From contig CAVZKL010000019.1 of assembly GCA_963775895.1 (NCBI GenBank), positions 9,909 to 73,908 on the forward strand: a stretch of 64,000 nt of DNA, given 5' to 3'. The stretch is from Candidatus Bathyarchaeota archaeon. GTDB lineage: Archaea > Thermoproteota > Bathyarchaeia > Bathyarchaeales > Bathycorpusculaceae. Position 1 is the first letter of the stretch; each line of letters begins with the position of its first letter. Shown in pieces: positions 49,401 through 64,000 of this stretch. A program made the translations under genes and the position numbers. The notes below the pieces were generated by a model. That model ran no database searches. It had not been told where the DNA came from and saw nothing but the letters and a program-made list of their open reading frames with translations.

Positions 49401-50129
49401 TCAAGATCCATTCCTTCTTCCAAGAAAGCTTTCTTCTTGTCTCAGTCTTTCCACAAGGTTAAGCGTCAAGGTTATCGTGAACACTATTACCATGAGGATT
49501 ATTGCGTATGCCATTGCGACGTCGAACTGTCCTAGATTTGTTTCCAATGCAATGGAAGTTGTCAGCACCCTCGTTTCTTGAAAAAGATTTCCACCTATCA
49601 TCATGGCCACACCGAGCTCTCCGAAACCTCTATTGAAAGCGGCTGTTATAGCTAACACCATTGACCAAACGGTTTCTCTTATTATGACCAAGTTGGTTCT
49701 AAGATTAGATGCGCCAAGCGTCTTAGCGAGATCTCTTAACTGGACATCAGCAGCACCAAGTGCACTGCCGGTGAAGCTGACGATCAAGGGTGTAACCAAT
49801 ATAGATTGACCAATTGCTATTCCATTAACCGTGTAAAGTAGATGTAGAAAGCCGAATAGTCCTTGACGCGACATAAAGAGATACAATAACAATCCCAAGG
49901 CAACCGTGGGAACACCTATGAGCGCGCTGAAAATGCCTTTGATCAACCACTTACCTCTAAAAGAATGTAGACCCAAAACCATTGCTATAGGAATGCTCCA
50001 TAAGCAAGCTAGCAGCGTCCCAACGCCAGTGACGTATAACGACCTATAGACAGTCGCGTATACTTCATTGTTCCCACTGAAAATCAATTCCAGAGCCTTC
50101 TGGAACGCCTGAATTATTACATCTGCCAT
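49401..50129 (-). CDS. tupB: Tungstate ABC transporter permease
   Basis: GVPTVALGL, LLYT..GIAIGQ..LVTP, ELGVAMMIGGN....TRVLTTSI.LET. Confidence 0.9.
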   Translation of the reverse strand: MADVIIQAFQKALELIFSGNNEVYATVYRSLYVTGVGTLLACLWSIPIAMVLGLHSFRGKWLIKGIFSALIGVPTVALGLLLYLFMSRQGLFGFLHLLYTVNGIAIGQSILVTPLIVSFTGSALGAADVQLRDLAKTLGASNLRTNLVIIRETVWSMVLAITAAFNRGFGELGVAMMIGGNLFQETRVLTTSIALETNLGQFDVAMAYAIILMVIVFTITLTLNLVERLRQEESFLGRRNGS

Positions 50130-50198
50130 TCGAGATCACAAAGAAAAAAGAGGATTGAGTCTATGCGCGCGAGATAACTCGCGCCAGCATGCGCAAGA

Positions 50199-51472
50199 TC
50201 ACGGGTTATCCCAACTGTTTGCGTATAGGTAGCCTGCGTCGTATCGGTAAGCCGATGCACATTCGGTTGCGTTTGCAGGGAGGTAAGCGTAGCTCTGGAT
50301 CCAGCTCAACAGTGTGGCGTTGGCTCCGTTGGCTAATGGCACGAAGGGGGTGAAAAGTGGTGCTCCGAACGTTGACGTCCCATAGTTGGCTAACAGGTTT
50401 TGGCCTTCGTCAGAAACCAAGTAGTGTATGAATAGCATTGAAGCGGCAAAGTTCGTTTGCGTGAGATTAGCGTTCAGTGGATTGTCTGCTATCATGCTGT
50501 AAACGTTCAACAGGTCCTGGCTGGCTTGAACCACAATTTTCATTTGAATGTTCCCGTTTTTGGTGTTGGTCAAATATGAAGCCGTGTCCGACAGTGTGTA
50601 TCCGCCTAGTTGGTTGGCCACAAGTAACGTGGCGGTCATGCCTTGTCCTGTCTCCTTGTACCATGATGTTTCTGTTCTTATCTGCGTCCAGTTTATGCCT
50701 GCCTTAGCCCACAAGGTCTTTTCTTTTGCGTTAGTTCCTGATCCGTCGCCTCTTGATACCCATATGGCTTGACCTTGTTCTCCGAGTGTTTTGATCTGTT
50801 TTAGTGCGTCCAACGGTGTCATGCCAGTTACGTTGGCGGGATCGTTTTGGGGTCCTACGATTATGAAGAAGTTGGATGCTATGATCTTGCGGTTCACGCC
50901 ATATCCGTTAACCATGAATGTGTTTTCCTGAACCGGATCGTGGACCATTATCATGTCTGCGTCACCTCTCATGGCTGTCTGTATGGCAGCGCCAGTTCCT
51001 TGCGAAAGAAAATTAATGGTTATCCAAGGGAACTTTGCCTGAAACACCGTTTTCATCTGATCTTCCACTCCTGTTTCGTAGAGGCTGGTCGTTGACGAAA
51101 CTATTAGCGTAGTGGGTGATGGCGGTGAACCTGTCCATCCAAACTTATTTACATCAATCGCGATATCCCTCATGTTTATCCGGCTGTCGTTGTTTATGTC
51201 GTATTCCGGGTTCCAATTGGGTGTCCCTGGTTGGGCGTTGAAGACACTGACAAGTGTGGCTATGTCTTTCATGTTCACTTTGAGGTCGAGGTTGACGTCT
51301 TCTCTTATCGTCCAGTTAAGCCAGTCAGGCTCAGGATACAATCGGTCTGGTTGACCACGCTGCTGCTTATTCCCGTCAAGGCGTTTACATTCGATACCTG
51401 ATAGAAAAAGGTTAGCAGTAAAGGCAACACGCAGATACTGAGAATCAGTATTTTCTTCAATCTTCGACTCAA
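50199..51472 (-). CDS. tupA: Tungstate-binding protein TupA with N-terminal dockerin; signal peptide lies in another frame (frameshift ~51340)
   Basis: STTSLYETG, GTGAA....RGDAD..MVH, SRGDGSGTNAKE, GQGM, YTLSD; TTG-start SRRLKKILILSICVLPLLLTFF signal peptide. Confidence 0.88.
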
Positions 51473-51733
51473 TTCCGGGCATCTCCTTATCAATGGGTCA
51501 ATGCGTATGGCAGACAGAGGATCGATATGCATTTAAAAACATTTCGGCGATTGAAACGAAGATCACCGCCGCGCGAGCCATCGTTCCGTCAGTCGATCTA
51601 TTGACACGATTTATCCTTGCGTTGCTGCTAGGTTGAAGGAGAAATTTGGTGACCTCTATCAGAAAGTCTGAAAAAAGCTTCTTGGAGGAAACGAAGATAA
51701 AGACATTGAGAAATATGATTCTGCAGTTGTGAA

Positions 51734-53074
51734 CTACCTTTTCTTCAACATACTGCAGAAAGAGCGCGCGCTGCTTTTTGCGCAGAGCTTCAGGGCTGAA
51801 TCTCCGCTGCTTGGCGGACGCGTTGTTCTCCTCTTTCTTAAGAGAAATCCAAAAATCAAAATGAGTGCGGCCAGCATTGTTGCCAAAAGCACCTTTAAGA
51901 GTAGAAGGGGGTCCCCCGGCGGGCTTCCAACCGTTATCGTGAACGTTTTCAAACTGCTTATTCCTTCATCGTTGGTTACATTAAGCATCACATAGTACGT
52001 TCCTCCTTTGCCGTACGAGTGTGACACGACTTGTCCGGTTCCGTTTGCTCCGTCGCCGAAACTCCATTCATACGAGACTATTCTTCCAACGTCAACGGAT
52101 TTACTTGCGTCAAAAGTCACGTTTTGTCCAACGTCAACCGCTGCCGGATAGTATACGATGGGTTCCGGGACGCGGTGAAATTCTGCGCCTGATATGCTCA
52201 CGGTGTGAAAGCCTTCCTCAAGAGCCAGGTACACGTACGAGCTTGTGTTGGTGTCAGCTTCAATCGCGCTGAAGGTCTTTCCGTCCAGGGTGACGTTGTA
52301 CGGTCTGCTGAGAAAGTCTTGTTGCAGGATCAGATCGGTGAAACCCGACGTTCCTTCTGGAACAGTAACATTCAAGTTCAATGCTTTCTGGGAAGGGTCA
52401 AATGAAGAGGCTGTAATTGAAGCGTTTGTGAACGCTCTGACTTCGAAAGTTCTGTTTCCGTAGGACAACTCCAACGTCTGTAGTGAAGGAGTTGGCGTCG
52501 GCATTGGGCCGTAGTCAGGCACGTCGGCCGTGTCGCTGTATCCCGAACTCTCCCATTGTCCCTTGTAATCAGTCGTGACGACTTCTATTGTTTCAACGCC
52601 GCTAGCCCATTTGTAACCATACTTGCCCGGGACAGCCAGTCTGTTAGGACCTGCCGGGCCGTAAGTCAGTTGCGGGAGGCTTGTTCCGTTTGCTTCTAGA
52701 GCCAGAATTGTCGTGGGTTTTAAAGCGTCTTCTACGAGGAGGTCTGAAGAATAGCCGTCTGAACAATGCGTGACAATCTTGTAGGCTTCGGGTTTGATTT
52801 GAGCCAAAGTCAGTAGATAGAAGAGTGGTATTCCAGTCCAGTTGTAAGTAACGTCTGGAGAACCTGTGACGCATCTTAGTTCGGCTACCTCTGAAACCAT
52901 GGGTAAAGAAACCAGTTCAGCATAGGTCAAGTTCAAGGGAGTGCTCACAGATCCGTATATCTCCAACGCGACAGGTGTTTGAAGGGCAACGGTTGCCTTC
53001 GACGCGGGCAGAAAAGTAACCAGAGCAAAGATCAACAACAAGGCCAAAGAAGCCGTTCTTAGGGTTTTGCGCAT
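51734..53074 (-). CDS. Exported sulfite-oxidase-family (Oxidored_molyb) domain + PKD domain + C-terminal TM anchor
   Basis: LRCVTG (Mo-ligand Cys), WTGIPL, DGYS, RLAVPGKYGYKW; PKD FDASKS..YEWSFGDG..SHSY. Confidence 0.85.
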   Translation of the reverse strand: MRKTLRTASLALLLIFALVTFLPASKATVALQTPVALEIYGSVSTPLNLTYAELVSLPMVSEVAELRCVTGSPDVTYNWTGIPLFYLLTLAQIKPEAYKIVTHCSDGYSSDLLVEDALKPTTILALEANGTSLPQLTYGPAGPNRLAVPGKYGYKWASGVETIEVVTTDYKGQWESSGYSDTADVPDYGPMPTPTPSLQTLELSYGNRTFEVRAFTNASITASSFDPSQKALNLNVTVPEGTSGFTDLILQQDFLSRPYNVTLDGKTFSAIEADTNTSSYVYLALEEGFHTVSISGAEFHRVPEPIVYYPAAVDVGQNVTFDASKSVDVGRIVSYEWSFGDGANGTGQVVSHSYGKGGTYYVMLNVTNDEGISSLKTFTITVGSPPGDPLLLLKVLLATMLAALILIFGFLLRKRRTTRPPSSGDSALKLCAKSSARSFCSMLKKR

Positions 53075-53117
53075 GTTTTTCAACCCCCTATATAGCGCGC
53101 TGTGCCTTCTGAACAGG

Positions 53118-53363
53118 CTAACCAGAGCCTCTGTTTTCCGCTTCGTCCAAGGCTTCCTTACGTTGCCAAGCAGCATCCGTCTTGCCTGAAGAGTCTTCAC
53201 GTCGATGTAAACCAAGTACAGGATTATCCGTTTCCTCAGTGCCTTCAACTCGAGACGGTCTCAAACCCCAGCAGGTTAATTGCTGGGCTTGCCCAACCGC
53301 AACCAAAGCAAACGGCAACGTTGCAACACTCATTGCGACGAGGAGAAGCTTCCACAACTTCAT
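53118..53363 (-). CDS. Short signal-peptide-bearing ORF, possibly a gene fragment
   Basis: MKLWKLLLVAMSVATLPFALVAVGQA; TTTAAATA box upstream. Confidence 0.35.
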   Translation of the reverse strand: MKLWKLLLVAMSVATLPFALVAVGQAQQLTCWGLRPSRVEGTEETDNPVLGLHRREDSSGKTDAAWQRKEALDEAENRGSG

Positions 53364-53718
53364 GCTTCTTAATCACTCAAAACGAACCAGCCATGTTCAA
53401 TTATTTAAACCCTGTTAAAAGAAACACGAATCCGATGCGCCCGCAGATCCGAGCAGATCTCGCGAGTTCTTGTGTCTTCCAGGATCTTTTGGGTTTCGCT
53501 TTCTGTTGGGTTATGGACTGGTTGCAGTGCGAAGAAATGTTGGGGATTGCGAATGGATAGTGGTCAAAATGGCGCGCCTAAAATTATTCGCTGAAAAAAA
53601 GCTTATTGTGTACCTCCCCTCCTCGGTTTCAATGTATCATGAATATTAGGATCCAAATATGCACGGATGCGATTTGTTTTTCTGCCTTTTTGCGGCACAC
53701 GCTCTTTTTCACTGTATA

Positions 53719-53785
53719 AGTGCGGGGAGTGGGACTTGAACCCCAACAGAAGTGGCGACGTCTCCCGCAAATCCCCCTTTTTTCT
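53719..53785. repeat. tRNA-3'-end-containing structured repeat, copy 1
   Basis: AGTGCGGGGAGTGGGACTTGAACCCCAACAGAAGTGGCGACGTCTCCCGCAAATCCCCCTTTTTTCT. Confidence 0.92.
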
Positions 53786-54021
53786 CTCTGCATCTACGTA
53801 TTCGGGTCACTTGACGCTAACGTGCTCAGCCTATCGTCAAATTGGTGCTCTTTAACTGGCATCCGCGCGCTTGATCGCCCTCTTCCAAGACCAAGTCTAA
53901 TCCTCCTGTGTTGTACTATCTCTTGCGGCGCTTTATTGGTGAGGATACGATGGCAACACGAAAATTCACTTATCTTGAAGTTGTACCTGCGATTTCTGTA
54001 CAAAAGAGTGCATGCGCGCGC

Positions 54022-54372
54022 CTAGAACTCTAGTGTTTTCCGAATCTTCTCAAGGTTCTCTTTGGCTGCGGGCTCCTCGTTCGACAGGAACTGTTTCAAC
54101 ATGTCGCATGAGTAATTGCTGCAGTGGGCACAGGTTCTGACTTTCTTTTCTGTGGCGCAGGGTCTTATCTTGCAGAGCTTTCGGCACCAACCAGAAATTA
54201 TGTCGGACTTGCATCCGTTACAGTCAACGTCTTCTGGTTTGAACTTAATCTCGCCTTGATCAGACCAGTGTTTGGCTATCTGTCTTTTCCACTCAATGTC
54301 TTTCGTTTGAGTCGCTTTGAATGCTTTACATTCTTTGCAGTCCAATCCACAATAGGCAATCATTTCAGACAT
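54022..54372 (-). CDS. DUF3795-family Cys-rich protein
   Basis: IAYCGLDC..C, CNGC, C.IRPC...K...CAHC..YSC. Confidence 0.85.
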   Translation of the reverse strand: MSEMIAYCGLDCKECKAFKATQTKDIEWKRQIAKHWSDQGEIKFKPEDVDCNGCKSDIISGWCRKLCKIRPCATEKKVRTCAHCSNYSCDMLKQFLSNEEPAAKENLEKIRKTLEF

Positions 54373-55373
54373 TATCCTTTCACCTCCCTTCTATGCACCG
54401 TATTCCAAATCGCTGGGTCTTTGTTTGATCCGAAAAAAACGCGCAGGTTGCGAGGTAGATAGTCTAGCGTTTCGGGATCGGCTAGGTCAAGATTCTTGAG
54501 TTTTTCTAAGGTTGTGCTGGACAGAGCTAGGGCACCTTTGAGGAGAAGTTCAGTCTCTTCTTGCGAGAATTCCTCTCTTTCCACAATCCAGTTCATGAAC
54601 TTACTGTCTTCGGGGCAAACCCTTTGACAGTGAAGGCAGCCTTGCACGCAATTGTGCCAGGACGGGTCGATCCAACTTGGAAATGGGAAATCACCCTTCT
54701 TCTCATTGTGAAAAACGATACAGCGATCAGCATGGAGCAAGAAGCGGTCCGACGAGATTGCGCCTGTGGGACAAGATCGTCTGCAGGCTTGACAGTTTTG
54801 ACATTGTTTCATCATTCGCGCTTCTCCCCACATATCTTCTGTACAGGGCAGGTCGGAGTAGAAGGCTACGAGCTGGAGGAAGCTGCCCATTCCTGAAGCA
54901 TAGGTGATGTTGTTCCTTCCGTACTCGGTCAGTCCGCTGCGAACGGCCAGAAGCTTCAGAGGCAATGAGGTTGGAGCCACCGAGTATCCCTTTTCCTTTA
55001 GGACGCCGTTCAAGACCTCTGCGACCCGATTCCTCGTCTGCTCGTAGGCTACGTAGGTTGGAGGAAGGATCAGCTCCCTTCTTTTGCCCTTGAAAGTGAA
55101 AATAGCTTGGGCTTGGGGGCGAGGAACGGCAACTACGATTATGGATTTTGCCTCTGGCAGGTTTTCAGGAGCTTTGAACTCGAAGAAAGCAAGGCGCAGA
55201 CGATAAAACTCTTCGTCGAAGGATCCTTGACTGTGACGTTTCTCCATTTCTTCCCGCAACTCGGCAAGATGTTGAATGGACACAATTCGTCCGCGATATC
55301 CCCGCTCTTCCAGGTGATGCAGCAGTTCTTTAGTGTCCAAGCCTTGAGAAGGCACTCCATTTTTCGGATCCAT
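54372..55373 (-). CDS. QueG/reductive-dehalogenase-like 4Fe-4S double-cluster protein
   Basis: LPEAKSIIVVA, LKLLAVRSGL..YGRNN, CQNCQACRRSCP, CVQGCLHCQRVCP; start uncertain. Confidence 0.8.
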   Translation of the reverse strand: MDPKNGVPSQGLDTKELLHHLEERGYRGRIVSIQHLAELREEMEKRHSQGSFDEEFYRLRLAFFEFKAPENLPEAKSIIVVAVPRPQAQAIFTFKGKRRELILPPTYVAYEQTRNRVAEVLNGVLKEKGYSVAPTSLPLKLLAVRSGLTEYGRNNITYASGMGSFLQLVAFYSDLPCTEDMWGEARMMKQCQNCQACRRSCPTGAISSDRFLLHADRCIVFHNEKKGDFPFPSWIDPSWHNCVQGCLHCQRVCPEDSKFMNWIVEREEFSQEETELLLKGALALSSTTLEKLKNLDLADPETLDYLPRNLRVFFGSNKDPAIWNTVHRREVKG

Positions 55374-55476
55374 GATTTCAACCTGCATAACAGCCTTATG
55401 GAGGTTAGATGCAGACCCTGCATATAAACTTATAGCCACCTACTACTTAACTAGGTGGTTAGAAGAGACATGCCAT

Positions 55477-56101
55477 ATGCCAGCACGTGATCCTCAGATC
55501 CTGAACCTAGTGGGTGGAAGACTGTGCCTCGATTTCGTCAACACCGTAGACTGCCGAAACAGTAACCAACAAAGCGAGGTTCTCACCACGTACCCAAGAC
55601 TCGTTTCATGGAGTCAACACGCCAACATCCTAGCCGAGAATGAAGCCCAAAACCTGCTCCGAGAAGCAAGTCTTCACCCCGCAAACGCAAGAGCAGTCCT
55701 TGAAAGAGCTATCACGATAAGAGAAGCATTATACCGGATATTCTCCGCAATCGCCGCTCGCCGCTCGCCAGCAGCCACCGACATAGAAATGCTGAACGAA
55801 GAAATATCTGCAGCGATGGCCCAAAGCGCGCCTCACGCCTACAAATCCCCCAGAGCCTTGGGTGTACACTTTCGAAAAGAGCAGTCTCGACCAGATGCTG
55901 TGGCCGGTTGTTAATTCAGCGGCTGAGCTTTTGACCTCCGACTGGCTGGACCGAATCTGCAAATGCCAAGGAGAAAACTGTGGCTGGCTGTTCGTTGACA
56001 TGAGCCGGAATCGCAGTCGCAAGTGGTGCGACATGAAGGACTGTGGCAATGTAGTCAAGGCTAGACGACATTATCAAAAGACGCGTAACAAACGCTCCTA
56101 G
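55477..56101 (+). CDS. ABATE/CGNR zinc-finger protein; frameshift near 55830-55860
   Basis: [12 protein letters not shown]-terminus; [36 protein letters not shown]. Confidence 0.9.
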
Positions 56102-56216
56102 CGCGCGCTCTTCCCAAAAATTCCACATGTGTAGAAACCTGAGGACGTTTGCGTATGCGAAGACGCTGAACGGTTTACACGCCTAAAGCATAAAGGATAT
56201 TATAATCCGTTTTGTT

Positions 56217-56726
56217 TTGATGGATCTTATGTCGTTAATAGATGATATTCTTACTCGCAGAAGCATTAGACGCTATGAAACCAAGGATATATCTGAAGAG
56301 GTTTTGCAGCAAATTCTTGAGGCTGGCAGACAGGCTCCTTCAGCTGCTAATAGACAGCCTATTCGTTTTGTCATTGTGAAGGATCATGATCTACTGAAGA
56401 ACTTGTGCGATAATTTGATTACCCGTTTTGTCAAATATGCTCCCGTTGCTATTGTTGGGTGTGCAGACGTAAAATCATTTTTGACTGGAAAATGGGCCGT
56501 TGTTGACGCCACAATTGCTATGGAGAACATGGTTATTGCCGCGTGGACTTTAGGGGTCGGTTCGTGTTGGATAGGAGCTTGCAACGAAGAAAAAGTCAAG
56601 GAATTGCTAAAAATCCCTGATAAATGGAAAGTTGTTGCATTGATAACCTTTGGCTATCCTGCCGAGCAACCAAAGCCAAGAAAGAAAAAACCATTTGAGG
56701 AATTGTTTAGCTTCAACAGTTTCTAG
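56217..56726 (+). CDS. Nitroreductase family protein
   Basis: TRRSIRRY, APSAANRQP, GVGSCWIG, GYP. Confidence 0.93.
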   Translation: MMDLMSLIDDILTRRSIRRYETKDISEEVLQQILEAGRQAPSAANRQPIRFVIVKDHDLLKNLCDNLITRFVKYAPVAIVGCADVKSFLTGKWAVVDATIAMENMVIAAWTLGVGSCWIGACNEEKVKELLKIPDKWKVVALITFGYPAEQPKPRKKKPFEELFSFNSF

Positions 56727-56820
56727 CTAACTTGTTTAGAACTATCTCAATTTTCAAATTAGTCTCTGTCAGTAGTCATATTCCAAAATTCACTATCTGA
56801 TTAATTCGGGGGTCCTCGTT

Positions 56821-56886
56821 AGTGCGGCGGGTGGGATTTGAACTCCCACAGCAGTGGCGACGTCTCCCGCAAATCCCCCCTTTTCT
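56821..56886. repeat. tRNA-3'-end-containing structured repeat, copy 2
   Basis: AGTGCGGCGGGTGGGATTTGAACTCCCACAGCAGTGGCGACGTCTCCCGCAAATCCCCCCTTTTCT. Confidence 0.92.
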
Positions 56887-56935
56887 GTTTTTGAATTATG
56901 TGAGAGAAGATTTATCCGCAAACGATATTTGATGA

Positions 56936-59077
56936 TTGAGTATTGCTGTATCAGGAGGAAGGATGTTGTCAAAAAGCGTAATTTTTGAAATACTGTTGAC
57001 ATTTCTTCTGGGAAGCATGTTGACATCAGTCTTGTCTGCAGTAAATTGTTGCTTCTTGAACGGTTCCTTTCCACAATGGAGAAACCAAGAGCAAAGTGCG
57101 TTGGTCATTCCACTGGGAGGGTACGTTTCCCTGCAGGCGGATGGACTGGACGCTGCCTCACTCGCTGAGGCTGTTCTCTGTACAAATGAGACAGGAATCT
57201 GGAGAAATGAGACTGAACATGCTCTCTTATGGATGCAGCCCGCTGTCTACGGATTTGACAACTTCGGTACAGCAACGTACGTAGGCGGCGTTATTTATGC
57301 ACCCTCAAAAGGCAACCACGTATCCGATGGCAAAATCTATGCAATCAATGCATCCAGTGGAAACGTGATCTGGAACGTCACTGCCCGAATGGTTGATGGT
57401 TCACCATGTGTTGATGGTGATCTGGTCTACTTGGGCGAAGGTTTCTCAGTAGTAACTGGTGAATCTGTTCCCAACCCAGAAGCCATAGCATTGAACAAGA
57501 CTAACGGCGGTGAAATTTGGCATTACATTGAACCAAACGAGTACGGCTGGGTTGGCTCCCCCGTCATCCATGAAGACTATGTATACTACACTACTGGGTT
57601 GTACAATTATACCACTAGGATTGCGGCTGGTTCAGGAGTGTACGCCTTAAACAAGACTAACGGGCAGAAGATATGGCAGACGGACATTGGATTCATAGTT
57701 GGTTCGGTTGCTTACGATGAAGGCGTAGTCTATGTTTCTGGCAGCGACAGTAGTAGTTCTCAAGGACAGTATGCTCTGAATGCAACAGATGGAAACGTGA
57801 TCTGGCATGTAAATTGGGGCCGTTCGTGGGATTCTTCTCCCGTGATCTATAATGGAACAGTTGTTCAGGTTGTACGCGAGATGTCAGTGCCTTACCCCTA
57901 CAGCGCCGTTGTCCTAAACAAATCAGATGGCGGGTTAATACGGAGGTTTGCAGGCAAGGGGAGCCAAAGCACACCGTTGATAAATAATGGTACAATTTTC
58001 ATTCCGGACGATGATTGGAGAATATGGGCTTTTGACCTTGAAACTGGGCAAGAAGTCTTTCATACAGCGGAGCTTCACGACGGAACCTTAGAGAACAACA
58101 GTTATTGTAGCCCAGCAGGGGCAGGCGGTGCAATGTACTACCAGTCCTTGAACGGAACATTCTATGTGGTAGACATGGTAGATGGTGACGTACTCTCGTC
58201 CTATGCTCTAGGTGGACTTGGATTAGGCAGTCCAAGCATAGGTGACGGCTGTGTTTTCATCACAAACGACGCTGGTCTCTACGCTTTCAAGATTGGTCCT
58301 GGTTCAGGTAACTGGCCGATGTTCTGCCACACTCCTGCACACGTATCTTATTCAGACTTAGGCATTGAATATGTCAGATGGCCACTTACTGAGCCAATTG
58401 ATCTTGGAAATGCTTCTAACACGTGGGTTACGGCAGAGTTCTTGTGGTGCAATAACACGATTGACTCCGCTGCAATAGCTTGGAAAATACAATTCTTCGA
58501 CGCGGAAGGCAACATGAACGCAACGGATGTGAAGGTTTTCTACGTCAATGTGCCCACGTACAATGTTGCTGCTGTCAATTTGTTACCCCAAAAGACGGTG
58601 ATTGGTCAGAATATGGCTTTGCCAATAAATGGGACAGTGGTTAATGAAGGCAGTTACACTGAAACATTCAGCGTCACCCTTTATGCTAATGAGACCTCTA
58701 TTGAATTACAAAACGTTACCTTAGCAAGTGGAAACTCCAAAACCATCGCCTTCACTTGGAACACAAGTCAGTTCCATTTTGGTAACTACACGTTGAGCGT
58801 TTATGCAGAACTACTGCCAGAAGAGACCGACACTTCAGACAATAATTTCACCTGTGGCACTCCAGTTCACGTTGGTGTTCCTGGCGACGTGTCCAGTTCT
58901 ACGCCGGGCGTCTATGATGGCGTTACGAACATGAAGGACATAGCGTATTTAGTAAGCTTGTTCAACACCAGACCTAATTCGTCCAATTGGAATCCTAACG
59001 CTGACGTGAACAATGACGGAGTCTGCAACATGAAAGACATAGCCATAGGCGTCTACTACTTCAACCAACATGAATAG
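56936..59077 (+). CDS. Exported PQQ-like beta-propeller protein with CARDB-like and C-terminal dockerin domain
   Basis: Repeated YALN.T.G..IW blades; V.NEGSYTETF.V...TIAFTWNT; GDV...DG.TNMKDI...WNPNADVNNDG..NMKDI. Confidence 0.88.
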   Translation: MSIAVSGGRMLSKSVIFEILLTFLLGSMLTSVLSAVNCCFLNGSFPQWRNQEQSALVIPLGGYVSLQADGLDAASLAEAVLCTNETGIWRNETEHALLWMQPAVYGFDNFGTATYVGGVIYAPSKGNHVSDGKIYAINASSGNVIWNVTARMVDGSPCVDGDLVYLGEGFSVVTGESVPNPEAIALNKTNGGEIWHYIEPNEYGWVGSPVIHEDYVYYTTGLYNYTTRIAAGSGVYALNKTNGQKIWQTDIGFIVGSVAYDEGVVYVSGSDSSSSQGQYALNATDGNVIWHVNWGRSWDSSPVIYNGTVVQVVREMSVPYPYSAVVLNKSDGGLIRRFAGKGSQSTPLINNGTIFIPDDDWRIWAFDLETGQEVFHTAELHDGTLENNSYCSPAGAGGAMYYQSLNGTFYVVDMVDGDVLSSYALGGLGLGSPSIGDGCVFITNDAGLYAFKIGPGSGNWPMFCHTPAHVSYSDLGIEYVRWPLTEPIDLGNASNTWVTAEFLWCNNTIDSAAIAWKIQFFDAEGNMNATDVKVFYVNVPTYNVAAVNLLPQKTVIGQNMALPINGTVVNEGSYTETFSVTLYANETSIELQNVTLASGNSKTIAFTWNTSQFHFGNYTLSVYAELLPEETDTSDNNFTCGTPVHVGVPGDVSSSTPGVYDGVTNMKDIAYLVSLFNTRPNSSNWNPNADVNNDGVCNMKDIAIGVYYFNQHE

Positions 59078-59171
59078 ACTCCTTTTTTTCACTTCAACTC
59101 GGCTCTCCAAGTCACGACAATGTTGTTTGTGGCGAATCGTTTTCTACTGTTTCGCATAAGCGTAGCAAAAG

Positions 59172-59369
59172 GTGACTGCGATGACGCCTCAACCCAACAC
59201 TTGCCCCAAATGCGGCAGCCACATGAACGAGGACAAACATCTTCAGGCGTTAGGCTGCAACGTTGAACTCGTTCCGGCGCAGGGCTTCTTGGGTGACGTC
59301 GTTCAAGTCTTTTACTGCAATAGATGTGGCTACATTGAGCTTTATCATGTCGAGAGAAAGCCTAGGTGA
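59172..59369 (+). CDS. Small zinc-ribbon protein
   Basis: CPKCG..M ... YCNRCGYIELY. Confidence 0.75.
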   Translation: MTAMTPQPNTCPKCGSHMNEDKHLQALGCNVELVPAQGFLGDVVQVFYCNRCGYIELYHVERKPR

Positions 59370-59439
59370 GAACGGGCTAGTAGCTATTCTTCTTGCTTCT
59401 TCTTTTGCGTGCGCTCTCTCCCGTACTTTTTAACATAGT

Positions 59440-59505
59440 AGTGCGGGGGGTGGGACTTGAACTCCCACAGCAGTGGCGACGTCTCCCGCAACTCCCCTTT
59501 TTTCT
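59440..59505. repeat. tRNA-3'-end-containing structured repeat, copy 3
   Basis: AGTGCGGGGGGTGGGACTTGAACTCCCACAGCAGTGGCGACGTCTCCCGCAACTCCCCTTTTTTCT. Confidence 0.92.
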
Positions 59506-59806
59506 AAGATTAAATCGTCCAGTGAAGAGTATTTACCATGCACACGATTCCAAAGAGTACCGTAACGAAGGGAGCAGACGGGACTGCGGCGCTATTGGTT
59601 CGTTTTTTCTTCAAGATTTTTCGACGACTGTCGCTGAGCTCTCGTGTCTTAGGACTTTACGAACGGACGGCTGGCAAATAGCGTACAGGCTCTCAAACGG
59701 CGAGGTCATCGTCAAGCGCGTCCGGTGACCCTCTCAGTATTTTTCCCAACTTCAAAGAGTCTCCCTGCCGAAGTTTAAACGTCCGCATAAGCGCGCGCGA
59801 GACAGG

Positions 59807-60556
59807 TCATCTCTTTCTGCAGACAAACAGTATTTTTCTACCTTCTTCTCTCAGATTGGCTTCAAGGATCTCGAAATGTTCAGAGAGAGCTGACTTCATT
59901 TTGGCAACTGAGTAAATAGTTTCTTTGAATCTGTACTTGTTGAGTTGGTAAAGTCCATTTAGGAGTCTTTCAAAGATTCGAGAATCCCAAGTCAGTGTAT
60001 TGCCCTTCACTATCTCTTTGTCATAGTAGTATCCTTTTGGGAACTCCTTAACTGATGAAGTGGATCTATTGTATTTTTCCAGCCAATGAACCGTGTCTCT
60101 CAGCATTTTTGGCGTATAAACATCAAAAATGAACAACCCATCTCTGTTAAGATGCTCATTCACCGCTTTGAACGTTGATTTCCACTGGTCAAAGTCTTTC
60201 AGAAAGTTGATTGCATCGTTAGCAGAGAATATGATATCGAATTTCTCATCAATCTTGAAGTTGTGCATGCTGGAAACAAAGAACATGCCCCTTGGGATCC
60301 TCCTCCTGCAAACCTCAATGTAGTCCCTTTCAATGTCCAAACCATAGACAGCATACCTCTCTGGAAGATTGACCAAGACCATTCCAATTCCACACCCTAT
60401 CTCTAGTATCTTCTTCGCCTGCTTGCGATATTCCTTTATGGGTTCCAAGACATAGCGTGCCCTTGCTCTTGCCCCTTCCTTGCTCGTAAGCGATTCCCAA
60501 AAACTCACAAAAGGTTTTGACGTCTTGCTTCGGTGCTCATATTTGACCATGCACAA
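59807..60556 (-). CDS. Class I SAM-dependent methyltransferase
   Basis: ILEIGCGIG, GLDI, KFDIIFS..DAIN, HLNRDGLFIFD. Confidence 0.88.
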   Translation of the reverse strand: MCMVKYEHRSKTSKPFVSFWESLTSKEGARARARYVLEPIKEYRKQAKKILEIGCGIGMVLVNLPERYAVYGLDIERDYIEVCRRRIPRGMFFVSSMHNFKIDEKFDIIFSANDAINFLKDFDQWKSTFKAVNEHLNRDGLFIFDVYTPKMLRDTVHWLEKYNRSTSSVKEFPKGYYYDKEIVKGNTLTWDSRIFERLLNGLYQLNKYRFKETIYSVAKMKSALSEHFEILEANLREEGRKILFVCRKR

Positions 60557-60842
60557 CCCTCAAAGTTGCATCCAGCAGAACGACTATTTGTCTTTTGAGT
60601 CAGATATTGCTTGTCAACTTTTCTTCGCGCGCACTAGTGAAGGGTGTGTATGAATATGGAAAATTGTAACAGATTTCTGTAACAATCCCGTCACTTTCTC
60701 CAAATTACGCGCGTTAGTGGGTCGCAAACTAGTTCCATGGGGTCGTCGTTTGGTTTGGTTTGGAATAAAATTTAGTCATAAAGCTAAAACAACAAGAGTG
60801 AAAAAGATGGAAACTCTTGATTCATTCAACTATGCAATGCTC

Positions 60843-60881
60843 CTATTTCTGTTTCTTATGTCCCTTCTTCTTTTTTCCCAT
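60843..60881 (-). CDS. Putative 12-aa basic micropeptide MGKKKKGHKKQK
   Basis: GAGGTG SD upstream of ATG; very short. Confidence 0.4.
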   Translation of the reverse strand: MGKKKKGHKKQK

Positions 60882-60947
60882 TCTTGTTTTTCACCTCAAA
60901 CCATTTATTGTGTATGATTACAATTTAGTTCCCAAATCCAAAAGTGC

Positions 60948-61076
60948 CTATTTTTTACCTTTCGAATGTTTTGCAGGAAGCGAAACCTGCTTTTTCTGTT
61001 TTCTTTCCTGGTCTTTCTCTCTCTGTAGTTTTTTATGTTGCTCTAAACCTGCAGCTTTCTTTTCTCTTCTTGACAA
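60948..61076 (-). CDS. Putative 42-aa basic microprotein
   Basis: TTG start; MSRREKKAAGLEQHKKLQREKDQERKQKKQVSLPAKHSKGKK. Confidence 0.5.
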   Translation of the reverse strand: MSRREKKAAGLEQHKKLQREKDQERKQKKQVSLPAKHSKGKK

Positions 61077-61315
61077 AAACTCATCAACCTTAGCAGGCAA
61101 TAGAAGCATTACGCATTCTAAAACGTTGTCCTATTGTCTACAAATGAAGGGCGTATACTCGATTCCGATACTATCTATATACCTACCCTATTATGGTATT
61201 GGTTATTTCCTACCCACTTGATTACTGCAACAAAGCACTAACTGTGTATACTGCCCTCTTAGTAGCTGTGTTTCCATGATGCTGCGTAGCACGTCGAATT
61301 TGGTTTGGTTGGGTG

Positions 61316-61333
61316 GATAAAACTTTACCCCAA
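61316..61333 (-). repeat. 18-bp site, exact inverted copy of 62590-62607
   Basis: GATAAAACTTTACCCCAA, flanked by TTTGG/CCAAA repeats. Confidence 0.8.
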
Positions 61334-61460
61334 ACCAAACGATTACCTATCATCTATCCCTGAGGTCTTAATAGTTGCAGACCGCCAATGGGTATTTGCG
61401 CGCACGCTCAAAACTTTTGGTAGAGCTGAAGGAGATACTCCTGAAAAGCATACGCAGCTC

Positions 61461-61598
61461 CTAAACCTTCTTTCCGTATTCACTGAACTTTTTCCCGCAA
61501 CACTCGTACTGCTTAACATGTATCTTTTTGTTCCTGCCCATATTCCACTCCTTTATCGGCGTTTCAACTTCTTTTCCACAGGTCGGACACTTGGCCAT
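61461..61598 (-). CDS. Cren7-like zinc-ribbon small protein (45 aa)
   Basis: GGAGGTG SD; MAKCPTCGKEVETPIKEWNMGRNKKIHVKQYECCGKKFSEYGKKV. Confidence 0.75.
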   Translation of the reverse strand: MAKCPTCGKEVETPIKEWNMGRNKKIHVKQYECCGKKFSEYGKKV

Positions 61599-61712
61599 TT
61601 GTCTGTCACCTCCTTCAAAGGTTTTAAGATTAAAAAACAGGGTATTAAAAACAAGGCGTTGTTTCCGCGTCTATAGGGCTCCGTAGAGTTGGTTCCAGCA
61701 CCTAATGCCCTA

Positions 61713-61781
61713 TTACTCTTTTTCTTCCTCTAGTTCCTCTTCCTCTTCTTCTTCTTCCTCTTCTTCTTCCTCTTCGCCCAT
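61713..61781 (-). CDS. Putative 22-aa poly-glutamate micropeptide
   Basis: MG-E14-LEEEKE with mixed GAA/GAG codons in one frame, GGAG upstream, TAA TAG double stop. Confidence 0.5.
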   Translation of the reverse strand: MGEEEEEEEEEEEEEELEEEKE

Positions 61782-62302
61782 AGTGTTGTGCTCCAAAATT
61801 AGCGCTCCTAGGTCTAGTCTATAACGCTATTAATAAGCGTGTTGATAGTCAAGCATGCTCCTTAAAAATACTATATACGAGGATGCATCCCTTATTAGAT
61901 CGGAACCTTATATTGCGTGAGAAGCTGGATGAGATCGCCCGGAGATCAAAGGGGTCTTATGACACTCTTTGGATATGAGTGGCCCACGCGCGTCAAGATG
62001 GGAGAGATAATCAATGGAACTGTTTATTGCTGGAGGCAGCGTCCTTACAACGTCTGGCGCCTTTATTCTCACTACAGCATACTTAGTCTAGTCCTAACAA
62101 GAGAAGCAGCAGAAAACATTGGGAGAACCGACAAGGCAGTCTCACCAACCTACTTCAACACATAATTTCGGGACAAGGCAACGCGCCTCCTAACTGTTTA
62201 CAGTGAGGCATGGTTCCAGCATAGCGTGGTCTATTGCCGTTTTCAAGCGCGTGCGATAAATGTAAATATACAGGACTTCTAATATGTTCTGAGGAGTGTA
62301 TT

Positions 62303-62407
62303 ATGGTCAATTGCGCAAAGTGTGGTAAAGATATTCCTGCAGGACAAGAAGTGAAGAAAGGCTTCCTAACAAAGAAAAGCTATCATAAGGAATGTGCACC
62401 CAAGTAG
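62303..62407 (+). CDS. 34-aa single LIM-like zinc-finger microprotein
   Basis: GAGGAG SD; MVNCAKCGKDIPAGQEVKKGFLTKKSYHKECAPK (C-x2-C-x20-H-x2-C). Confidence 0.7.
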   Translation: MVNCAKCGKDIPAGQEVKKGFLTKKSYHKECAPK

Positions 62408-62589
62408 AGTCAATACTTACCAGTATTGCACAGGCACTTCCCTAACCTTTATCCTCTGAAGGCAATTATTTTCTTTTATCTTTTTTTCTTTATGAGCGGG
62501 GTTCAAAGTGTTCAATTCACGCGTGGCGTGGCGCTGGTGTTATGTGCCTGCTGGTGTGGATAGGGCTCGGGCTTTGGTTGGTTGGTTGG

Positions 62590-62607
62590 TTGGGGTAAAG
62601 TTTTATC
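62590..62607 (+). repeat. 18-bp site, exact inverted copy of 61316-61333
   Basis: TTGGGGTAAAGTTTTATC preceded by (GGTT)n. Confidence 0.8.
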
Positions 62608-62650
62608 GCGCACGCATCATTCGTGTCAAGACATCGTACGCTAACTAAGC

Positions 62651-62776
62651 CTATCTGGACTGTTGCCTTTCAAGTCTGGCAAGCTTTTTATCCTTACGCT
62701 GCTTTTCTCTTTCCTTCTTCTTCCGAGGTTGAGGGCGTTTTCGATCTTGTACTGATGTTTCTCCTTTCTTCCGCAT
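62651..62776 (-). CDS. Putative 41-aa basic microprotein
   Basis: AGGTGG SD; MRKKGETSVQDRKRPQPRKKKEREKQRKDKKLARLERQQSR. Confidence 0.55.
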   Translation of the reverse strand: MRKKGETSVQDRKRPQPRKKKEREKQRKDKKLARLERQQSR

Positions 62777-63158
62777 GTAACCACCTACTTCTCACAAAAG
62801 AAAAAGATTCGTCTTCTTTCTTGATGAACGATTCTTCTCTTCAGGTATAACTAAGTCATTACGATTTTTATGGCTTGTCCCTTCCTCAGCAAATCGCACG
62901 TTAAGCGATCTGACAAATCCAACTGATCCATTATAACTTTAAGCTGTTGCGCGCCGCCTAATTCAAAAATGGAGAAACGACAGGGGGGGGAATAAAGCGC
63001 GCGCTATAAGAAAAAATGAAAAGAAAAATTGACGTGCACTGCGGGTGCACACGACGACTGACCTCTTTCAACCTCTTAGTTCTCAAATACAGGTCAGCAA
63101 CGGTCACTTAGCAGGAGGATTTCAAATAGGGGAATGCACAGAATGACCAGACATGTGA

Positions 63159-63745
63159 GTGACCACTATGGCGAGTGATGAATGGTGTGTTGCAGTTTTC
63201 CAATGCACGCCGGAGAATGTCAGAGGTGTTCTTCTTGATTTCTATGGTTTCATGAAAGATGTTGAGGGTGTCAAAAGTCTTCATTTCCTGATCAGGGATC
63301 GCATCAAGAACGAGATTGTTGTCAGTTTTCGCGTGCTTGCAACGGAGAAAACCAGAGAGATTGTCAGGAGCAAGATGAACTACAAACTCGGAATTCTCGT
63401 TCCCGACAAGTTCGCAGTCGATCCTGACCCGCAGAGCTCGTTGAACAAATATGTTGCTTGGGGCACCGAAAAAAGAATGTCTAAGTCGGGTCTCGACAAG
63501 TTTCCGAATTCTGTAATCTTCTCAGCAAGATGAGTGGTTTAGTCATAGAAATGTTGAAGAAGGATTATTTCGGTTCTCGTGAGAGAGTTGAAATTGCCCA
63601 TGTAATGTCTTGGATGCTTGGATGTACTGAGTACGGGAAAATGAGCCCAACTCACTGGGAACTTGGGTATTATGACCGAATAGAAGACAAGTGTTTTCCA
63701 TACCTGAGACAAGACTTTCCACAAACCCAGAAATCTGAACCGTAG
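63159..63745 (+). CDS. Hypothetical protein (~190 aa); frameshift near 63505
   Basis: Two overlapping ORFs join into one protein-like sequence (…DKF/EFCNLLSKMSGLVIEML…). Confidence 0.6.
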
Positions 63746-64000
63746 CTTCATGGACATACCGCGTGATGGCTCAACGAGCTCTTCGAGCTCACGACTGCCT
63801 ACCTCCTTCTAATCTCTTAGTTCTTTCAAACCTCTCTGTTAGCGCGCGGCTTTTTGAACGTAAGGTTCAGGTTCCGAGAATCAGATGTGGCAGTGAGCAG
63901 TCTATTGTTCCTTGGACCCATTGATAGGCGAGATTCTTTCTTACCTGGAATTCCCTTAGTGCGCGCGCTGATTGAACTAATGATTGGTGTTTGTTTCTGG

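Follow-up and report, generated by a model that had tools for sequence, protein, structure and literature searches.

In the portions of the source papers drawn on here, Islander tDNA islands are described as an intact tDNA, an island with a tyrosine integrase and a displaced 3' tDNA fragment, in a catalogue that includes attachment (att) sites of the attP type in the T-stem region as well as tandem arrays (PMC4383910). The closest analogue found, again going by part of its description, is provided by the ssrA islands of Dehalococcoides, which stand in tandem, with 20-bp repeats of the 3' end of ssrA as their boundaries and, immediately upstream of every repeat, a conserved non-ssrA motif of 15 bp; some of them have no integration module and are discussed as cis-mobilisable elements (PMC3146451). 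A review of archaeal integrated elements and gene capture covers tandem integration as well as the loss of integrases once elements have integrated, in passages that mention Bathyarchaeota nowhere (PMC8371274). Here we analyse three short repeats in a 64,000-nt stretch of a Candidatus Bathyarchaeota genome (hereafter the window), which lies on contig C19 of its source assembly G000 (1.77 Mb, 28 contigs) and whose last position, 64000, is the end of that contig. The repeats are probably attachment-site scars of small mobile blocks that were inserted serially at a tRNA-Leu gene and subsequently lost their integrases. Four observations bear on this: the repeats contain tRNA-derived cores, they share a conserved arm at a conserved distance from the T-loop, integrases are linked to that arm in related loci, and the cargo is variable. 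In what follows G numbers denote the genomes compared, C numbers contigs and L numbers individual loci extracted from genomes.

The initial annotation had noted three copies of about 66 bp on the same strand, at 53719-53784, 56821-56886 and 59440-59505, and reading of the minus strand bears this out; each copy sits between Pfam-supported genes, so they are all intergenic, as was claimed. Read on the minus strand, the unit consists of an A-run, a G-run, an A/T-rich spacer of 3-4 nt and an invariant 18-nt arm core, followed by a linker of 8-10 nt and by 21 nt of tRNA that run from the T-loop to the discriminator. Thus delimited, copy 1 occupies 53719-53790 (arm core 53751-53768, tRNA-Leu 3' part 53721-53741; nhmmer E = 2e-22), copy 2 occupies 56821-56892 (arm core 56853-56870, tRNA-Leu 3' part 56823-56843) and copy 3 occupies 59440-59511 (arm core 59472-59489, tRNA-Leu 3' part 59442-59462), all on the minus strand. 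Within the window the arm core is present in exactly these three places, on the minus strand only, against a mean of 0.04 occurrences in the shuffled window, where three occurrences were reached in 0 of 100 shuffles. The three copies are 87-93% identical over 64-82 nt (BLAST), and the dyad GTGGGA-7 nt-TCCCAC described earlier is imperfect in copy 1 and perfect in the other two. The most constant flank of the arm is the prefix of A-run and G-run. Upstream of the copy 1 arm conservation extends over some 60-80 nt (to 53864), and this flank recurs on contig C10 of G000 and in units of G004 and G009 that have a tRNA-Cys core.

That the minus-strand end of the unit corresponds to the T-loop-to-discriminator end of a tRNA-Leu gene was a correct reading, since it matches the 3' ends of the genome's own tRNA-Leu genes. 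The 21-nt cores are identical at 19-20 of 21 positions to tRNA-Leu(GAG) on C12 and tRNA-Leu(CAG) on C17, each core differing by one or two changes from the tRNA-Leu genes of G000, and the copy 3 core agrees at 21/21 positions with the tRNA-Leu(UAG) 3' end found in a relative (L019/L086). The suggestion that the tRNA part varies in the manner of different isoacceptors also holds, the three cores being different and matching the 3' ends of different Leu isoacceptors. All three units thus present a displaced tRNA 3' fragment in one orientation, which is a feature of Islander islands. Besides its copy on C12, tRNA-Leu(GAG) is present as the cut-off end of contig C6. C6 ends within the T-arm/acceptor part of this tRNA and C12 has the same tRNA with the same upstream flank, which looks like an assembly fork at an att core and would fit population differences downstream of that tRNA. 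ARAGORN finds no tRNA gene in the window and called only 24 tRNAs in the whole G000 assembly; what appears to be a tRNA-Leu(CAA)-like gene, with additional sequence inside it, at C16:16747-16891 on the minus strand, was missed by it, and the extra sequence probably represents non-canonical introns.

When one genome per species was scanned for the arm pattern (185,579 species), 83 stretches matched, and 79 of the 80 matches listed are labelled Bathyarchaeota or Bathyarchaeia. Among these listed matches, a T-loop-like motif follows the arm in 41 of 79 arms, as compared with 95 of 3810 random 45-nt windows (2.5%), and its offset from the arm is 10 nt (9 arms), 11 nt (30 arms) or 12 nt (2 arms), with no other offset seen. 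The 12-nt acceptor-side signatures after the T-loop are almost all different (40 distinct ones among 41 arms), which implies that the same arm has been joined to the 3' ends of many tRNAs; the ends recognised are of Leu, Pro, Cys, Ala, Arg, Ser and Phe/Met type. An arm joined to a tRNA-Pro 3' end was observed in G024 (L039:2265-2337) and in G029 (L021). G000 itself contains a fourth full copy, on C17, which follows tRNA-Leu(CAG) at a distance of 1.9 kb on the same strand, and two arm-only copies, on C10 and C18. Units consisting of arm and core likewise lie 1.2-6.6 kb downstream of tRNA-Leu in G018, G020 and G024, so that an intact cognate tRNA stands at the opposite end of the island in these three genomes as well as on C17 of G000. 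Within loci of 8 kb, a second cognate core on the same strand accompanies 10 of 42 arm-plus-core units, upstream in seven cases, at 0.65-4.2 kb from the unit, and downstream in three. A scan of viral contigs gave two matches, one arm plus core and one arm alone, the latter preceding an asparagine synthase gene, and no integrase adjoins either arm within the stretch available.

One family of tyrosine integrases, matching PF00589, occurs in 95 of the 121 genomes sampled from the order, and in G000 about nine tyrosine recombinase genes pass the Pfam cut-off, among them several members of this tRNA-adjacent family. By tblastn with the G000 tyrosine integrases the family was seen to be convergent with tRNA-Leu, and its members end in ...FRKRK; in L016, L019, L033 and L039 a few tens of nt separate the tRNA 3' end from the integrase stop codon. 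The 30 best integrase loci were scored by eye from the printed sequence, 26 of them having enough downstream sequence to be judged. In about 20 of the 26 the stop adjoins the 3' end of a tRNA or tRNA fragment in the same orientation (Leu, Cys, Pro, Met, Ile, Arg, Ser or Phe), at a distance of a few tens of nt, or about 130 nt in L063; two of the remaining judged loci adjoin an antisense tRNA and four adjoin nothing recognisable. As a separate observation on these spacers, in L064, L066, L072, L076, L078 and L082 the acceptor 3' strand (7-9 nt) is repeated between the tRNA end and the integrase stop, some 10-25 nt downstream of the tRNA end and often after a TTTTGGA-like motif; this may be a putative integrase binding site that tracks the target tRNA.

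The same integrases are found beside the arm. Among the 80 arm loci listed, 15 have integrase matches and 14 of these 15 are antisense to the arm (upstream of it in 11 cases and just downstream in 3), in accordance with the prediction. In G024 (L039) the core of an arm-plus-core unit lies 48 nt from a full integrase of 283 aa, which amounts to a P-O-P' junction with an integrase, and integrase remnants lie beside arm and core in G012 (L040, 32 aa) and G030 (L017, a fragment). L149 combines an intact tRNA-Ala, an integrase remnant and an arm plus core within 0.7 kb, in L121, L128 and L159 an integrase adjoins the upstream core, and on C17 of G000 a 58-aa remnant of an integrase C-terminus, convergent with the tRNA, directly follows tRNA-Leu(CAG). 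An integrase, whole or as a remnant, is found within the island in L039, L149, L121, L128, L159, L037 and L040, and is missing from the window blocks. Since the tRNA-adjacent convergent integrases also occur beside arm and core, the full layout in related loci is tRNA, antisense integrase, cargo, arm plus core, the order classically shown by attL, integrase, cargo and attR. The link between arm and integrase is drawn from the loci with remnants, antisense integrases and second cores, and not from all members of the family.

The unit is best read as the P-arm-plus-core half, either an attR or a P-O-P' junction, of small integrative elements that appear to target tRNA genes throughout Bathyarchaeia. 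In the mechanism we propose, a small circular element would be ordered as arm, core, short spacer and a convergent tyrosine integrase gene. The element would recombine with the 3' part of tRNA-Leu, the crossover falling in the T-loop/acceptor region; the tRNA would be rebuilt from the core of the element, and the old tRNA 3' end, now joined to the arm, would come to lie at the distal end of the insert as attR. Repeated insertion at one tRNA would stack such elements, their internal junctions then reading arm-core-spacer (P-O-P'). The three copies in the window would be such junctions on the minus strand, and the two blocks between them would be the cargo of two stacked elements whose integrase genes were later deleted; the order of insertion and the loss of the integrases are what we infer. 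The fixed spacing to the T-loop and the constancy of the arm over target tRNAs suggest that the arm may be an accessory protein-binding site in attP. Its other strand (CCCC-T6), which in the circular form would lie just after the integrase gene, could end the integrase transcript.

The variable content expected of such elements is seen among relatives, where the cargo between tRNA-Leu and the arm-plus-core unit is different in each genome (for example PIN/MazE, a ZIP transporter, a GH38 fragment and NHL/FIST/methyltransferase proteins). For the sister locus on C17 of G000, an empty site was found in G005, in which 155 bp separate tRNA-Leu(CAG) from a gene whose distance downstream of that tRNA in G000 is about 4.5 kb; the corresponding distance from tRNA to gene is about 10 kb in G001 and about 17 kb in G008. 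A segment of C9 in G008 shares 90% identity with the block that follows the C17 unit, and this homology begins within the core. At the sister locus, then, relatives lack the insert and the break falls at the att site, and for the window's own blocks it is non-synteny in 10 congeners that is shown. Non-synteny, the empty site of G005 and the homology start in G008 together sustain the notion that att-type junctions bound variable gene blocks. The beginning of the homology inside the core agrees with a crossover in the T-loop/acceptor region.

In minus-strand order the array of the window reads element-like region (64000-59512), copy 3, block B, copy 2, block A and copy 1, beyond which follow an 82-bp dispersed repeat and then a molybdopterin oxidoreductase/PKD gene. 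Block A (53791-56820, between copies 1 and 2) contains, all with Pfam support, a DUF3795 gene (54022-54372) and a 4Fe-4S protein gene (54372-55439) on the minus strand, and genes for an ABATE/CGNR regulator (55372-55914) and a nitroreductase (56217-56726) on the plus strand. Block B (56893-59439, between copies 2 and 3) holds, on the plus strand and likewise identified by Pfam, a gene for a protein with PQQ-like beta-propeller, CARDB and dockerin domains (56936-59077) and one for a Zn-ribbon protein (59172-59369). The element side (P-side) of copy 3, at 59512-64000, carries a methyltransferase gene (59807-60556, minus strand, Pfam) and open reading frames (ORFs) without known family. That the blocks are free of integrases, as had been noted at the outset, is borne out by Pfam, tblastn and the family hidden Markov model (HMM); they show direct-orientation flanking att sites with no recombinase inside, a feature of cis-mobilisable elements. 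In the 10 congeners the genes of block A are in scattered, non-syntenic places and block B has matches of 65-66% at other loci only; the genes of both blocks lie at scattered loci at lower identity, and the flanking core genes are 72-80% identical. The spacer after copy 3 (59415-59441) resembles the spacer between tRNA-Leu and integrase of relatives, a score reached by 3 of 500 shuffles, and the spacer after copy 2 (56797-56822) weakly resembles the spacer between tRNA-Leu and integrase stop, a score reached by 13 of 500. The stretches after copies 3 and 2 are like the two spacer types of relatives, and this likeness agrees with the P-O-P' junctions predicted for stacked elements.

Several results count against serial insertion followed by integrase loss. 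No integrase or remnant was found in window 50000-64000 by tblastn with five family members (all E > 0.3) or with the integrase family HMM (all E > 2), and the sequence after copy 1 is unlike known spacers, 466 of 500 shuffles being as good. The parent tRNA-Leu of the array is unseen on the contig because the contig stops only 4.5 kb past copy 3. Elsewhere, 38 of the 80 arms among the matches listed are without a clear tRNA part. In L039, the tRNA-Pro arm-plus-core unit lies 1.2 kb downstream of tRNA-Leu, beside the full integrase, and insertion at its tRNA-Leu alone leaves the tRNA-Pro core unexplained. Eight tRNA-adjacent integrase loci, followed for up to 20 kb, contain neither a second core (at most 4 mismatches in 22 nt) nor an arm with A-run prefix, and none of the 30 best integrase loci contains an arm; this weakens the case for the arm as the far end of most elements of the integrase family. 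A separate 48-aa integrase-like tblastn match in the window, at 53222-53359 (E = 0.32), was discarded as it was unconfirmed by the family HMM.

The alternative that survives best is that the blocks are live cassettes, integrase-free but still excised and re-inserted at tRNA-Leu by integrases encoded elsewhere in the genome, in the manner of cis-/trans-mobilisable elements or of an integron built on tRNA att sites, and we regard it as unlikely. It would account for blocks bounded by near-complete sites in direct orientation, and G000 does have about nine tyrosine recombinase genes, with several of the tRNA-adjacent family. Whole elements are moreover tiny, the 0.65-4.2 kb from upstream core to arm plus core being the size class of the window blocks, and C6/C12 hints at an assembly fork at the tRNA-Leu(GAG) core. 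Against this, the copies have diverged (87-93% identity, the cores being one or two changes off the tRNA-Leu genes of G000), the blocks carry several genes on both strands, the decayed integrases beside related sites fit decay and not design, and contigs of public sequencing runs contain no excision product. Four runs from four studies have near-identical pieces of both blocks; their contigs are short and mostly break inside copy 2, near 56845-56849, and a 309-nt contig of an independent run spans 56624-56932, that is copy 2 with both flanks, with 0 differences. No clean core-to-core joint exists among these contigs, which cannot show rare excision. The sole contig joint near two copies links 56747 to 59441, in one run, with 22 nt on its shorter side, and is not core-to-core; such joints as touch a copy, few in number, are short on one side (22 nt) or have additional letters between their two sides, and they look like other family members in the metagenome.

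Integrase loss is the simpler reading, because intact relatives carry their own integrase and decayed remnants lie beside other copies. For the same reason the proposal of the initial annotation that integron-like cassettes are moved in trans finds no support: intact relatives carry their own tRNA-adjacent integrase, and decayed remnants are found elsewhere. A wider form of the idea, in which modules of about 0.7-4 kb dock throughout the lineage at many tRNA 3' ends via the shared arm, kept 10-12 nt from the T-loop as a handle common to all for the recombination machinery, and the integrase-free blocks stay substrates of integrases encoded elsewhere, is in our judgement doubtful. If it were true, tRNA genes would be platforms of cassette exchange, an archaeal functional analogue of the integron in which only the core changes with the target.

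It is much less probable that the unit is regulatory, either a terminator, with a structured 3' end on the plus strand (hairpin, CCCC, T6), or a palindromic arm serving as a transcription-factor site close to promoters. All three copies do lie downstream of plus-strand ORFs, of which the nitroreductase and Zn-ribbon genes only have Pfam support, no flank is more constant than the prefix of A-run and G-run, and in 12 of 18 arm-only copies an A/T-rich, TATA-like stretch is followed by an ORF on the same strand 64-350 nt on. However, the plus strand folds no better than shuffles (z of +0.18, -0.93 and -0.67 for copies 1-3 against dinucleotide shuffles), and neither a terminator nor an operator would account for the fixed link of 10-12 nt to many tRNA 3' ends or for the orientation bias with respect to integrases (14/15). 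A gene-specific cis-regulator was ruled out, as the genes around 18 arms are mutually unrelated and DUF3795 is upstream of copy 1 only.

More remote still is the reading of the unit as the gene of a small tRNA-like RNA, transcribed from the minus strand as a minihelix of acceptor stem and T-arm. It is possible to draw the unit as a T-arm hairpin with GCGGG/CCCGC as its closing stem, and in an alignment of 14 homologous units (11 assemblies and one viral contig) 76.8% of the cells of the closing helix pair. None of the seven closing pairs shows a compensatory change over these 14 units, though, and the arm still reads GCGGG opposite the 3' strand of tRNA-Pro or tRNA-Cys. On the minus strand the folding z-scores against dinucleotide shuffles are +0.39, -1.50 and -0.51 for copies 1-3, the minimum-energy folds are unlike between copies, and no promoter spacing is conserved upstream. 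Neither ARAGORN nor Rfam matches the three units. An RNA gene was therefore ruled out by ARAGORN, Rfam, the fold z-scores and the absent covariation; the mini-tRNA fold that had been put forward is unsupported, having no folding excess over shuffles and no compensatory change. In sum, of the first interpretation the att-type tRNA junctions are supported, and both the mini-tRNA fold and the integron-like movement in trans lack support.

Least credible is a coding unit, in which a short ORF would run from the TTG of the arm through the tRNA part as a leader peptide or as the N-terminus of a split integrase of the Sulfolobus spindle-shaped virus (SSV) type: the three copies share an open frame from this TTG with several copy differences at third codon positions, and on C20 of G000 an integrase frame passes through a tRNA-Ala 3' end in the same register, but the start codon is lost in L009, a 1-nt indel separates 'start' and motif in L011 and L017, the longest frame among 16 arms is 72 aa, frames through the tRNA-Leu 3' ends of G000 do not reach an integrase, and the integrases beside tRNA-Leu are convergent and complete without the unit, so that start loss, 1-nt indels and the lack of long frames rule it out.

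Some further features of the surroundings were observed. Region 59690-64000 is a mosaic of segments that recur in multiple copies at 84-94% identity in genomes of the same genus; it includes the methyltransferase gene (59807-60556) and a repeat of about 100 bp (59690-59799), and its ORFs other than the methyltransferase match no Pfam family. Positions 62613-62881 of the window are 96% identical to C9:69137-69402 of G000, 2.4 kb from another tyrosine recombinase gene. The dispersed repeat of about 82 bp at 53584-53666, 55 nt from copy 1, has 36 BLAST matches in G000 (20 plus, 16 minus), mostly at 92-100% identity, with shorter matches in congeners; it has a strong purine-rich, Shine-Dalgarno-like tract on one strand and may be similar to miniature inverted-repeat transposable elements (MITE-like) or to repetitive extragenic palindromic sequences (REP-like). 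Alternating GCGCGCGC runs occur near many contig ends of G000 and beside mobile-element genes, for example at about 63970 in the window, on C8, C9, C11 and C26, and at L039:1250-1420.

Serial insertion at tRNA genes explains a route by which accessory genes enter Bathyarchaeia genomes, here those for a nitroreductase, Fe-S and DUF3795 proteins and a PQQ-like/dockerin surface protein. An arm joined to a tRNA 3' end is a simple marker with which islands can be mapped to the base in fragmented metagenome-assembled genomes, and the shared arm at a fixed T-loop spacing over many tRNAs points to a modular attP design. Integration next to tRNA is a well-known microbial route to accessory genes, to which the array in the window adds another case; established knowledge of site-specific integration at tRNA genes is unchanged. 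In the Bathyarchaeia literature searched, including the covered parts of PMC10848311 and PMC11697101, whose supplements may hold relevant tables, no such arm or tRNA-targeted islands are described.

Integrons have been reported in Archaea too. The array resembles them in that recombination sites of the same orientation separate accessory gene blocks. It differs in having no IntI/attI/Pc platform, and its sites are tRNA 3' ends plus arm instead of attC hairpins. An integron was rejected since window 50000-64000 has no PF00589-like sequence, and attC sites were rejected since the units fold no better than shuffles and the blocks hold four and two genes, the four-gene block on both strands. With archaeal integrated elements, as treated in the passages covered of their review, the array shares sites in tRNA genes, tandem integration and elements without integrase; unlike the SSV type, the integrase is here beside the att site and not split across it (PMC8371274). 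A self-splitting integrase of that type was excluded, as frames through the units or tRNA-Leu ends are at most 72 aa or unrelated to integrases, and the integrases found are convergent, ending tens of nt from the tRNA.

Compared with Islander tDNA islands, as far as the parts of that paper used here describe them, the array has the same 3' tRNA fragment in direct orientation, the crossover in T-loop/acceptor region, several fragments in a row and, in related loci, a tyrosine integrase that adjoins the intact tRNA (PMC4383910). Unlike those islands, the window blocks are without integrase and the contig has no intact tRNA; the elements here are 0.65-4.2 kb and one arm is kept at a fixed T-loop distance whatever the target (PMC4383910). 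The Dehalococcoides ssrA islands, again in the part of their description considered, share more: a tandem array after a small-RNA gene, an element-borne motif abutting the repeats, insertion at the T-loop, some recombinase-free blocks and strain-specific metabolic cargo (PMC3146451). Those islands use serine recombinases and a transfer-messenger RNA (tmRNA) gene in bacteria, whereas the elements described here have a tyrosine integrase and many tRNA targets in archaea (PMC3146451).

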